From: a virus
Lineage: Duplodnaviria; Heunggongvirae; Uroviricota; Caudoviricetes
Reading direction: 5' to 3' (one strand)
IMG/VR virus record: IMGVR_UViG_2711768076_000006
Location: 1-9,481 of that record
Length of the DNA: 9,481 bases
Under the pieces are notes generated by a model, which worked only from the letters and a program-made list of their open reading frames with translations, did no database searches and had not been told where the DNA came from. The position numbers were made by a program, and so were the translations under genes. The stretch's first letter is position 1. Every line of letters begins with the position of its first letter. Of this stretch, positions 1,124-8,448 are shown in pieces.

Positions 1124-1279
1124 TTACTCCTCAGGTTCGTAAGCTGTGAAGACAGCGACCTCCGTCTGGCCGGTTCGGATTCGTACCTCGCAGAGGTCTT
1201 TCCTCGTTACCAGTGCCGTCACTATGACGGTTAAACAGATGACGATCAGGGCGATTAACATCGCCTTTTGCTGCTTCAT
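1124..1279 (-). CDS. hokD: Hok/Gef-family type I toxin, 51 aa membrane peptide
   Basis: MKQQKAMLIALIVICLTVIVTALVTRKDLCEVRIRTGQTEVAVFTAYEPEE is a canonical Hok sequence and matches HokD/RelF as I recall it. AAGGAG lies 9 nt upstream of the ATG at 1279. Confidence 0.85.
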   Translation of the reverse strand: MKQQKAMLIALIVICLTVIVTALVTRKDLCEVRIRTGQTEVAVFTAYEPEE

Positions 1280-1336
1280 AGCCTGCTTCTCCTTGACCTT
1301 TCGGTCCGTAAGAGGCAATCTATATGTGACGAGCAT
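1124..1336 (-). CDS. mok: Mok reading frame (in-frame N-terminal extension of hok that couples hok translation)
   Basis: ATG at 1336 in frame with hok adds MLVTYRLPLTDRKVKEKQA, which resembles the N-terminus of chromosomal Mok peptides (mokC MLNTCRVPLTDRKVKEKRA from memory). Confidence 0.55.
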   Translation of the reverse strand: MLVTYRLPLTDRKVKEKQAMKQQKAMLIALIVICLTVIVTALVTRKDLCEVRIRTGQTEVAVFTAYEPEE

Positions 1337-1378
1337 ATAGGGGCCTCACTTCGATTTATAGTCGGGTGGGGCTTTTAT
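1315..1378 (+). ncRNA. sok: Putative Sok-type antisense RNA opposite the mok translation start
   Basis: Inference from hok/sok architecture. + strand TTGACC at 1293-1298 is a possible -35, but no good -10 hexamer follows at 16-19 bp spacing. Imperfect hairpin GCCTCAC (1343-1349) / GTGGGGC (1365-1371) is followed by TTTTAT. Boundaries are approximate. Confidence 0.3.
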
Positions 1379-1471
1379 CTATCTGCCGTTGGTGTTCATG
1401 CCCGAGGCAGATAGCCTCAAGCACCCGCAGCAATTCTACTTAACTCTGCCGTTACAGCAAACCGTTTTCGC

Positions 1472-5744: not shown

Positions 5745-6170
5745 TCAATGCGCCACCACGGCATTTCCCGCCGGACCACCACGATTCATCTGATTGAAAC
5801 CAGCAATTACCACCGCGACAAGTTCATCAGCGTCTCTCACCAGTCGTTCATGCGTATCCACCAGTTCCCGAAAATAATCGGAACTGTGGCTGCGCATCCA
5901 GGCCACCAGCGGAGGTGGCATTGCCTTTTCGATCGCTGGTAACAAAGCCTGAATTTTTTTAACCGCATCAGGGGTGTCTTTCTCCACCCAGCGGAAAATT
6001 TTCTGAGTATTGCGAGCCAGGGCTTCCGGATGGCTGTCGTCATACAGTTCCGGGAATGTCATACCCAGCTCAAAATAAGCCCGGGTTATTTCAGCTGCCG
6101 GAACTTTTTCACCGTCCGGACGCGCCCAGGCATTCATCGCCATGCGGATGTGTTCATGCTTGATTTTCAT
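5745..6170 (-). CDS. ydaT: YdaT-like protein (toxic partner of the RacR-controlled ydaS-ydaT operon)
   Basis: 141 aa. AAGAGG 10 nt upstream of the ATG; overlaps the ydaS-like 3' end by 17 nt. Position and size match Rac ydaT (about 140 aa). Confidence 0.8.
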   Translation of the reverse strand: MKIKHEHIRMAMNAWARPDGEKVPAAEITRAYFELGMTFPELYDDSHPEALARNTQKIFRWVEKDTPDAVKKIQALLPAIEKAMPPPLVAWMRSHSSDYFRELVDTHERLVRDADELVAVVIAGFNQMNRGGPAGNAVVAH

Positions 6171-6477
6171 GAATCATTTGCCTCTTGATGCTTCGGGTAT
6201 GATCGTTTTTGTCATTTGGTTGCTTCATCGACATATTCTGCGAATAACATGACGAACGTCGTAAGTATGACCAGTCAACATCAGGACGAAGTTCTTCACA
6301 CAGGACTCCACCTTTTGTTGCTCGTTCAATCGCTGGACATCTCTCGGCAGGCAACCGACGTACACCTTTGATCCATTGATTTACGCTTGGAGGCGATACC
6401 CCTAAAAGTCTGGCCATTGCTGATTGCCCACCAACAACAGCACAAGCTCGTTTGAATGAATAGTTCTCTTTTTTCAT
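6154..6477 (-). CDS. ydaS: YdaS-like Cro/HTH-type DNA-binding protein
   Basis: Start taken at ATG 6477 (MKKENYSFKRACAVVGGQSAMARLLGVSPPSVNQWIKG...), with GGAG 9 nt upstream. Divergent from the repressor, with operators in the shared intergenic region. Confidence 0.8.
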   Translation of the reverse strand: MKKENYSFKRACAVVGGQSAMARLLGVSPPSVNQWIKGVRRLPAERCPAIERATKGGVLCEELRPDVDWSYLRRSSCYSQNMSMKQPNDKNDHTRSIKRQMIHENQA

Positions 6478-6499
6478 CGAATGAACTCCAAAAAACACA

Positions 6500-6572
6500 C
6501 AATGATATTAGGCGGCGCCTAATATCATTGTCAATAGGCTATGCCTAACAACCAAGAGGTAGGGATTGCCTA
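6500..6572. promoter_or_regulatory. Right-operator-like region: three TAGGC-N3-GCCTA palindromes in the racR/ydaS divergent promoter region
   Basis: Cores at 6509-6521 (inside a 14+3+14 bp perfect palindrome, 6500-6530), 6535-6547, and 6560-6572 (TAGGG variant). Centre-to-centre spacing is 26 and 25 bp. Confidence 0.6.
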
Positions 6573-6601
6573 ATGCAATGCACATAGGAGACTATTAAGC
6601 A

Positions 6602-7078
6602 ATGCTTAGTGGTAAAGACTTAGGCCGAGCGATAGAGCAGGCCATTAATAAAAAAATTGCATCAGGAGCCGTCAAATCAAAGGCGGAGATCGCACGCCAT
6701 TTCAAAGTCCAACCACCATCAATCCATGACTGGATTAAGAAAGGTTCGATAAGTAAAGATAAACTTCCAGAACTATGGCGTTTCTTTTCTGATGTGGTTG
6801 GTCCAGAGCATTGGGGGCTTAACGAATACCCCATACCAACCCCTTCCTGCTCAGATTCAAAAAGAGAACTTTTAGACATAAACAGCCTTTATCAAGCCGC
6901 TTCTGATGAAAAAAGAGCAATTGTAGCCTTCCTCTTATCTGGAAATGCTGCGGAGCCTGGTTGGGTTGATTATGACGTTCGCGCCTACATTACTGCAATG
7001 GAAATGAAGGTAAGTAACTATCTGAAAAATCAAGAATCAGAACGGAAAAGCCAGAACATCACCAAAACGGGAACTTAA
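6602..7078 (+). CDS. racR: Prophage repressor, RacR-like
   Basis: 158 aa (MLSGKDLGRAIEQAINKK...), the same length as Rac RacR. AGGAG upstream. Flanked on both sides by the same operator palindrome family. Confidence 0.82.
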   Translation: MLSGKDLGRAIEQAINKKIASGAVKSKAEIARHFKVQPPSIHDWIKKGSISKDKLPELWRFFSDVVGPEHWGLNEYPIPTPSCSDSKRELLDINSLYQAASDEKRAIVAFLLSGNAAEPGWVDYDVRAYITAMEMKVSNYLKNQESERKSQNITKTGT

Positions 7079-7175
7079 ACTTATATGGTCCGACGGGAAG
7101 CACCTAGATCCCGTTATTTAGCTCCCATTACCTCTTCCACATACCATCGCCTATTAGGTTGTGCGCAAAAGGCAT

Positions 7176-7213
7176 TAGGCATAGCCTATTGACAAGCAAT
7201 TAGGCATTACCTA
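7176..7213. promoter_or_regulatory. Left-operator-like region: two TAGGC-N3-(G/A)CCTA sites downstream of racR, upstream of the + strand early operon
   Basis: Cores at 7176-7188 and 7201-7213, 25 bp apart. The 21-mer at 7175-7195 is the exact reverse complement of 6528-6548. Confidence 0.5.
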
Positions 7214-7398
7214 TAGTTTTCTCATACCAACCCACCCCGCCCCACAGAATGCAGGGCAATACTTTGAGTTACCAGGCAGTGGTCAGGGGGTAAGTAGCCA
7301 GCCCGAGGCGTAAGAACATGACGGCAGGGTTCAACTTTAATAACTATGCAGCAGGTTTTTGTTCCGCTACCCCGGCGTTAAGGGGAAATGAGGTCAGC

Positions 7399-7554
7399 AT
7401 GGATACTATCGATCTTGGCAACAACGAATCTCTGGTGTACGGCGTGTTTCCCAACCAGGACGGTACGTTCACCGCGATGACGTATACCAAAAGCAAAACG
7501 TTTAAAACCGAAAATGGTGCCCGTCGCTGGCTGGAAAGATACTCAGGTGAGTGA
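7399..7554 (+). CDS. YdfA/YdaF-family small prophage protein (51 aa)
   Basis: ATG at 7399 with GAGG 5 nt upstream (MDTIDLGNNESLVYGVFPNQDG...). The alternative ATG at 7318 would give 78 aa. Confidence 0.6.
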   Translation: MDTIDLGNNESLVYGVFPNQDGTFTAMTYTKSKTFKTENGARRWLERYSGE

Positions 7555-8390: not shown

Positions 8391-8448
8391 TTTCTGGTGA
8401 CTTTTGGCGGTATCAGTTCTACTCCGTGACTGCTCTGCCGCCCTTTTT
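8391..8448 (+). ncRNA. dicF: DicF small RNA (antisense inhibitor of ftsZ translation) with its 3' terminator
   Basis: TTTCTGGTGACTTTTGGCGGTATCAGTTCTACTCCGTGACTGCTCTGCCGCCC plus a T-run closely matches the K-12 DicF sequence as I recall it. It sits immediately upstream of dicB as in Qin. Confidence 0.7.

Follow-up and report, generated by a model that had tools for sequence, protein, structure and literature searches.

Downstream of the repressor gene racR, positions 7176-7217 of the DNA analysed here very probably form a RacR-controlled early-left promoter-operator, in an arrangement of the lambda OR/OL type with the repressor gene between two operator arrays. The sequence, hereafter the window, is a 9,481-bp stretch of viral DNA. 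About 1 kb of it around the two arrays matches E. coli chromosomes at 99.9% identity, in whose annotation this stretch carries a helix-turn-helix protein, racR and a DUF1391 protein, and the region is ~90% identical to the Rac prophage of E. coli K-12. By its sequence, the window represents a Rac-like prophage of E. coli. Recombineering with recET, the toxicity of KilR and the fact that racR is essential in K-12 all trace back to Rac. The following genes surround the arrays.

5745-6170, minus strand: YdaT gene, identified with Pfam.
6154-6477, minus strand: ydaS-like gene of cro type, 107 aa (Pfam YdaS_toxin, 9.8e-30; P22_Cro, 1.5e-8).
6602-7078, plus strand: repressor gene, 158 aa, annotated racR in the 99.9%-identical record.
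7399-7554, plus strand: ydaF-like DUF1391 gene (Pfam DUF1391, 4.6e-28).

At the best match, read in the orientation of the window, the leftward genes are ydaV, a ydaU-like gene, ydaT and ydaS, and the rightward genes are racR, DUF1391, a hypothetical gene, dicB, DUF1482, an exonuclease, an excisionase and an integrase. The ydaS-like gene, whose product is called a helix-turn-helix protein in the 99.9%-identical record, is the first gene of the lytic operon ydaS-ydaT-ydaU-ydaV, the equivalent of a rightward operon, and the ydaV product is an IstB/DnaC-like ATPase (Pfam). The repressor is ~90% identical over 158 aa to clusters named RacR and to K-12 RacR, of which it is the orthologue. A Pfam scan matched it to no family, hence it lacks the S24 self-cleavage domain of LexA/CI-type repressors. 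On the other side, the DUF1391 gene is followed by a 191-aa ORF, DicF, dicB, DUF1482, an exonuclease, xis and int (from the annotation of the record, with DicF from Rfam). An Rfam scan of the whole window returned only sok and DicF, and no RNA family in or adjoining the operator arrays. The sok antitoxin RNA (1277-1426, minus strand) adjoins hokD. The DicF sRNA (8392-8443, plus strand, 71.5 bits) has dicB next to it, and this Qin-type dicBF cell-division module would here fall under the control of RacR and of the promoter described below.

We searched the window for the palindrome TAGGCNNNGCCTA (TAGGC-N3-GCCTA) with at most one mismatch, and took 200 dinucleotide shuffles as the null. There are five sites where 0.15 are expected; none of the 200 shuffles reached five, the highest count being two. 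All five fall in two clusters that flank racR. Allowing two mismatches adds a site over the start codon of racR, plus two isolated, background-like matches elsewhere in the window. A promoter scan of 6400-7450 returned exactly two sigma-70-like sites, one inside each array. The two arrays are composed as follows.

6505-6534, minus strand: promoter PydaST, the equivalent of PR; -35 TTGACA at 6534-6529, 18-nt spacer, -10 TAATAT at 6510-6505; 10 of 12 matches.
6509-6521: promoter-proximal right operator, which we label OR1, TAGGCGGCGCCTA, no mismatch.
6535-6547: promoter-distal right operator OR2, TAGGCTATGCCTA, no mismatch, abutting the -35 of PydaST.
6560-6572: third right operator OR3, TAGGGATTGCCTA, one mismatch (TAGGG).
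6596-6608: fourth right operator, TAAGCAATGCTTA, over the racR ATG, two symmetric mismatches.
7176-7188: promoter-distal left operator OL2, TAGGCATAGCCTA, no mismatch, abutting the PL-like -35.
7189-7217, plus strand: PL-like promoter; -35 TTGACA at 7189-7194, 17-nt spacer, -10 TATAGT at 7212-7217; 11 of 12 matches.
7201-7213: promoter-proximal left operator OL1, TAGGCATTACCTA, one mismatch (ACCTA).

A first-pass annotation of this DNA had described three palindromes spaced by 25-26 bp in the divergent region between racR and ydaS, two more downstream of racR ahead of the plus-strand early operon, and a 21-nt segment (6528-6548) recurring as its exact reverse complement at 7175-7195. All of this is correct: the matches at 6509, 6535 and 6560 start 26 and 25 bp apart, those at 7176 and 7201 start 25 bp apart and lie 98-135 bp beyond the racR stop codon, and comparison of the repeats returns the 21-nt identity. 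It had overlooked the fourth right site and the promoter inside each array. The search for a third left operator returned only a pair of everted half-sites, GCCTA-T-TAGGT at 7149-7159, 17 bp upstream of OL2 and also present in K-12. Their geometry is unlike that of a normal operator; the 13-mer that starts at 7155 has three mismatches (by eye) and has no counterpart beyond Escherichia and Mixta, and we do not count it as an operator.

Operators and promoters are interleaved in the same way on both sides. OR1 occupies the spacer of PydaST and provides the first two bases of its -10; OL1 sits in the spacer of the PL-like promoter and overlaps its -10. Read in the direction of transcription, both promoters show the same cassette: a distal operator, the -35, a proximal operator in the spacer and the -10, with the final TA of the proximal operator forming the first two bases of the -10. 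The PL-like promoter, near consensus and carrying its operator pair, looks real and conserved. Its predicted start is near 7224 and it reads away from racR into the operon of DUF1391, DicF, dicB, exonuclease, xis and int, in which the DUF1391 gene is the first annotated gene that it meets. The remaining two right sites, OR3 and the site over the ATG, lie over the region of the racR promoters. The right half of OR3 contains TTGCCT, 16 nt upstream of GAGACT, and the -10 of the leaderless promoter PracR3 of K-12 is GAGAAT (PMC9638921). Given this spacing and the K-12 promoter, TTGCCT/GAGACT is a candidate for a leaderless racR promoter in the window.

We folded the PL leader (7224-7400, 177 nt) in search of a put- or nut-like structure and found it less structured than shuffled sequences (z = +1.6). 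Just past the predicted start, positions 7228-7247 are a C-rich, G-poor tract, CCAACCCACCCCGCCCCACA, which could be a Rho loading site. Rho silences the expression of kil in Rac. A terminator of racR was sought at 7060-7135, where a 7-bp hairpin with a 10-nt loop precedes UAUUU; it is not significant (z = -0.45).

The right array is known ground. In K-12, Krishnamurthi et al. (2017) noted that the GCCTAA/TTAGGC repeat occurs three times between racR and ydaS, and RacR formed three complexes with this DNA in EMSA (PMC5700373). Wisniewska et al. (2022) obtained a DNase I footprint of RacR, from which they read ATTAGGC as the site of a monomer and (T/A)TAGGC-n3-GCCTA(T/A) as the operator sequence. 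One of their operators covers the racR ATG, and they also located three racR promoters (PMC9638921). The sites of the window fit this footprint-derived consensus. PydaS of K-12, TTGACA/TAATAT, was mapped by primer extension and mutagenesis, and the ydaST promoter region was protected at the lowest concentration of RacR (PMC9638921). Later papers of the same group count four inverted repeats (PMC11014345; PMC11879457). Hence, published EMSA, footprint and reporter data establish for K-12 that RacR binds the right array and represses there, and the right-hand half of the arrangement is already known, because EMSA and footprint in K-12 defined the same consensus. The operator model that the first-pass annotation had offered for this RacR-like repressor is thus backed by K-12 binding data at the right sites, and for the divergent region it is not new.

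The left array, as far as we can determine, looks undescribed for Rac, although as an element it is of an ordinary kind. The RacR literature that could be searched, including the 2019 transcriptome and the 2026 CRISPRi preprint, with the 1996 work on Rac kil outside this scope, contains no description of the left pair or of the PL-like promoter. Nor does the K-12 RefSeq record annotate a regulatory feature at the left array. Of the matches in a phage collection, one is full-length and annotated only as 'Rac prophage repressor', one is partial, to the repressor gene of a Klebsiella phage, and two are short and fall on no annotated feature; the matching records carry no operator annotation.

Published expression data fit a RacR-repressed promoter upstream of ydaG and ydaF. 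When RacR is titrated by the C protein, ydaC, kilR and ralA rise >70-fold and ydaF, ydaG, ydaE and racC ~40-fold (PMC6765115). Upon depletion of RacR, ydaG, ydaF, kilR, racC, recET, xis and int are derepressed 40-100x (PMC6765115; bioRxiv 10.64898/2026.09.06.749655). Zygotic induction of the rac recombination genes, known since 1973 (cited in PMC5917428), fits as well. The derepression of the early-left genes could be indirect, through YdaS and YdaT, through prophage excision or through read-through.

Read-through is also part of a different account of the left array, in which the downstream cassette would be an inert copy of PydaST, left behind by recombination, and read-through and Rho-dependent termination would be the only controls on the early-left genes. 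The exact 21-nt inverted identity with the right array speaks for such a relic. So does the Rho-dependent terminator inside racR, trac, which controls kil and is the published reason for its silence (PMC4150792). Such a terminator would deal with transcripts that run on from the racR promoters, and a separate, repressed PL could exist beside it. As for the 21-nt identity, it results from a common operator, a common -35 hexamer and preferences in the flanking bases. The K-12 copies disagree at a single base, in the centre of the operator, so the exact identity is lineage-specific; in K-12 the 21-mer is not exact and the functional bases are still kept. The exactness of the repeat therefore has no significance beyond the common functional elements. 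The half-sites of K-12 are identical to those of the window, and the operators and hexamers of the left array are identical in K-12 Rac, where OL2 lies at 1419655-1419667.

Variation within Escherichia points the same way. Across 53 distinct Escherichia sequences of the region, variable positions number 4 of 60 in the half-sites, 9 of 18 in the operator centres, 3 of 24 in the promoter hexamers and 104 of 234 in the rest of the non-coding DNA (half-sites versus other non-coding positions, p = 8e-9, Fisher test). Purifying selection acts on the half-sites within Escherichia, which is not expected of a relic. Conserved half-sites around a variable centre are the pattern expected of protein-binding sites whose centre is not contacted, and argue against both a relic and a function as hairpins.

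The latter would make the palindromes RNA or DNA structures, such as terminators of racR or of antisense transcripts, rather than binding sites of a protein. A minus-strand stem-loop with a T-rich tail is indeed flagged by a terminator scan at 7188-7176 and at 6531-6499. Yet, stems are 5 bp and loops 3 nt, except in a lineage-specific 33-bp palindrome, and the copies of the right array are demonstrably bound by a protein in K-12 (PMC9638921). In relatives, moreover, the half-site sequence itself is constant, always TAGGC/GCCTA, and compensatory changes are absent. We regard hairpins as the least probable of the alternatives, to be given hardly any credit. The 33-bp palindrome (6499-6531) is perfect, has 16-nt arms and is centred on OR1; GTGTTTTTTG follows on the minus strand, which makes it terminator-like in the scan. 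Its extended arms are missing in K-12, so it is lineage-specific.

The downstream pair also finds support in the comparison with relatives. The first-pass annotation had proposed a motif search of related prophages, and operator pairs do occur on both sides of the repressor gene in relatives. A scan of species-representative genomes for RacR homologues gave 23 loci, from Escherichia, Mixta, Morganella, Proteus, Klebsiella, Erwinia, Achromobacter, Pigmentiphaga, Burkholderia, Herbaspirillum, Nitrosomonas and several metagenome bins. Two bins contain unexpected sequences: an E. coli-type racR locus with 89% identity in a Candidatus Nanosynbacter bin (L085) and a relative of proteobacterial type in an Alistipes senegalensis bin (L098), both probably mis-binned or contaminant contigs. 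The N-terminal 73 residues of the homologues are almost invariant and their C-terminal parts are variable.

Upstream of the repressor, most of the 23 loci have sites at about -66, -41 and -6 from the ATG. The site at -6 is found with at most one mismatch in 20 of the 23 loci fetched from genome contigs, the Escherichia-type loci having the form with two mismatches, and the TAGG(A/G)ATTGCCTA site homologous to 6560-6572 is nearly invariant. Escherichia-type loci have four right-hand sites (-93, -67, -42 and -6) instead of three. Compared with other genera (L087-L105), Escherichia appears to have gained one operator unit of 25 bp, inserted between the -35 of PydaST and the TAGG(A/G)ATTGCCTA site (6535-6559 of the window).

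Downstream of the repressor, 15 of the 23 loci have an operator pair with sites 25-26 bp apart. It lies 62-135 bp past the stop codon in ten short-gap loci, nine of them of Enterobacterales type, whereas the remaining five have it at a distance of 0.8-2.5 kb; in 7 of the 23 loci fetched from genome contigs no downstream pair occurs within the 3-kb flank. Set side by side, the downstream pairs read ...TAGGC-N3-GCCTA TTGACA N6-7 TAGGC-N3-GCCTA (A/T)TA(T/G)T... and their flanks have no obvious similarity. We then counted the whole cassette in 22 sequences, the window and 21 loci (L084 and L085 were omitted, their site pattern being the same as that of L083). Fourteen of the 22 have one copy upstream of the repressor gene on the minus strand and one downstream of it on the plus strand; they come from Escherichia, Mixta, Morganella, Proteus, Erwinia, Achromobacter, Pigmentiphaga, Burkholderia and Herbaspirillum, i.e. 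from two proteobacterial classes. TTGACA in this position, with at most one mismatch, and a -10-like TA-rich hexamer after the second operator recur in all 13 further sequences with a downstream operator pair. The left cassette lies 62 bp to ~2.1 kb past the repressor stop, and one more locus has an operator pair ~2.5 kb downstream. The arrays are separated by 654 bp in the window and by 0.6-2.8 kb in relatives. The consensus of 86 sites is a 17-bp sequence, ATTAGGC-N3-GCCTAAT, whose core columns are biased by the selection of the sites and whose flanking positions are unbiased. The coding direction past PL in relatives, taken from raw ORFs, was uninformative in GC-rich genomes.

This is difficult to reconcile with an inert copy of PydaST. 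Half-sites, -35 and -10-like hexamer are kept in 14 sequences of two bacterial classes, and the cassette stays while the surrounding DNA and the distance to the repressor change completely. We thus consider a recombination relic very unlikely. In four loci with distant left cassettes (L093, 4101-5537; L099, 3477-5398; L105, 1951-4036; L103, 3687-6146) unrelated cargo ORFs lie in between, among them an ankyrin-repeat protein, an LprI-domain protein, a DUF4124 protein and several without a family. This cargo interval parallels rexAB in lambda and paaA2-parE2 in CP-933P.

The repressors that share these operators differ in another respect. Five relatives (L093, L097, L100, L103 and L105), described as betaproteobacterial, combine the N-terminal DNA-binding domain of RacR with a C-terminal Peptidase_S24 domain. 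The identity of the N-terminal domain is 63-78% in four of the five tested, and 60% in L103, an unclassified Pseudomonadota bin. Enterobacterial RacR ends in a different domain that is not S24. A swap of the C-terminal domain seems to have taken place, which should change prophage induction.

Which protein binds the left pair is another matter. Instead of RacR, the Cro-like YdaS might be its main or only user, damping transcription of the early-left genes in the lytic phase. Competition between YdaS and RacR for the operators has been reported (PMC11014345), and in CP-933P the PL is repressed by both PaaR2 and YdaS (PMC8630535). A YdaS-family gene is the divergent neighbour of the operators in 18 of the 20 operator-carrying loci checked, an ORF search having returned none in the other two; the comparison across loci therefore does not separate RacR from YdaS as the binder of the left sites. 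Yet, the left half-sites are the same as those of the right array that RacR protects in the footprint, and early-left genes are derepressed when RacR is depleted, both of which are at odds with a use by YdaS only. Since lambda-type repressors and Cro share operators, use by YdaS would add to control by RacR and not replace it. YdaS probably shares the sites. A left pair serving mainly or only YdaS seems unlikely to us, if somewhat less so than a relic.

A RacR-controlled left array would give Rac the layout of a lambdoid immunity region, and the likeness to OR and OL that the first-pass annotation had noticed gains support from the gene order, from the overlap of both arrays with promoters and from the conservation of the cassette. 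The divergent repressor and cro-like genes are separated by a region with four operators (6509-6608); OR1 and OR2 are interleaved with the cro-facing promoter (TTGACA-18-TAATAT, minus strand); and past the repressor a second array, OL2 and OL1, sits on an outward predicted promoter (TTGACA-17-TATAGT, plus strand). The order cro, OR, cI, OL and PL operon of lambda corresponds to ydaS, operators, racR, operators and early operon. Both systems have palindromic operators of ~17 bp spaced by ~24-26 bp, a second array over an outward promoter that lies beyond the repressor gene and is co-directional with it, a leaderless repressor mRNA and an octamer-forming repressor. The differences are also clear. 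Lambda has three sites on each side, whereas Rac has four and two in E. coli, and three and two in other genera, with two sites instead of three in the left array. The arrays of the window are ~650 bp apart instead of ~2.3 kb, one Rac operator lies on the start codon of the repressor itself, YdaS is reported not to repress racR (PMC9638921), and RacR, as noted above, has no S24 domain.

The closest precedent for the left promoter is the PL downstream of the repressor operon of the cryptic sister prophage CP-933P, studied by Jurenas et al. (2021). That prophage has a Rac-like backbone with YdaS and YdaT, a repressor, PaaR2, that is octameric in solution, a PL whose -35 and -10 are identical to those of its PR, operators at both promoters and cargo between repressor and PL (PMC8630535). 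It differs in its repressor and operators (18-bp palindromes with the consensus GTTTAGTAA), in having three OL sites and in the toxin-antitoxin pair paaA2-parE2 after the repressor; repression of PL was shown experimentally in CP-933P (PMC8630535), whereas it is predicted for the window. The closest relative, K-12 Rac, shares with the window the repressor, the operator consensus, the hexamers TTGACA/TAATAT of PydaST and the layout of four sites including the one at the racR ATG. The K-12 papers differ in that they treat just the intergenic region and the start of racR, and the RacR octamer, detected by size-exclusion chromatography, was interpreted as four dimers on the four intergenic sites (PMC11014345).

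These observations suggest the following model. RacR dimers would recognise ~17-bp sites of the form ATTAGGC-N3-GCCTAAT. The left-facing cassette, from 6547 to 6505, would drive ydaS, ydaT and the replication genes from PydaST, and its right-facing mirror image at 7176-7217 would drive the early-left operon of DUF1391, DicF and dicB, exonuclease, xis and int. With paired sites 25-26 bp apart, as in lambda, RacR would occlude RNA polymerase at both promoters and the prophage would stay silent. OR3 and the site at 6596-6608, which cover the promoter and the start codon of racR, may serve autoregulation. We infer that RacR binds the left array, that it represses the PL-like promoter and that an octamer bridges the two arrays, which are ~650 bp apart. 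Looping is plausible because a RacR octamer is reported, each cassette has paired sites 25-26 bp apart and the separation is 654 bp, and we hold it to be possible but not quite an even bet.

Current papers explain RacR through the racR-ydaS intergenic region alone, and kil silencing through Rho-dependent termination. If our proposal is true, a RacR-controlled PL directly explains the activation of ydaG, kilR, recET, xis and int and the excision of the prophage upon depletion of RacR, and the interpretation of the RacR octamer would change. The exact sites to mutate in K-12 lie at 1419630-1419667. This involves no new regulatory principle, and its value is practical, for work on RacR, KilR, recET and the excision of Rac. 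One might speculate further, and here we are tentative, that the left pair is the direct link from RacR to the kil, recET and xis-int arm, that the octamer corresponds to two dimers on each cassette joined by a loop of ~650 bp and not to a row of four on the intergenic sites, and that the design with two cassettes is common to repressors of Gamma- and Betaproteobacteria in which one DNA-binding domain is retained and the C-terminal domain has been swapped, between the RacR type, which is not SOS-cleavable, and the S24 peptidase type.
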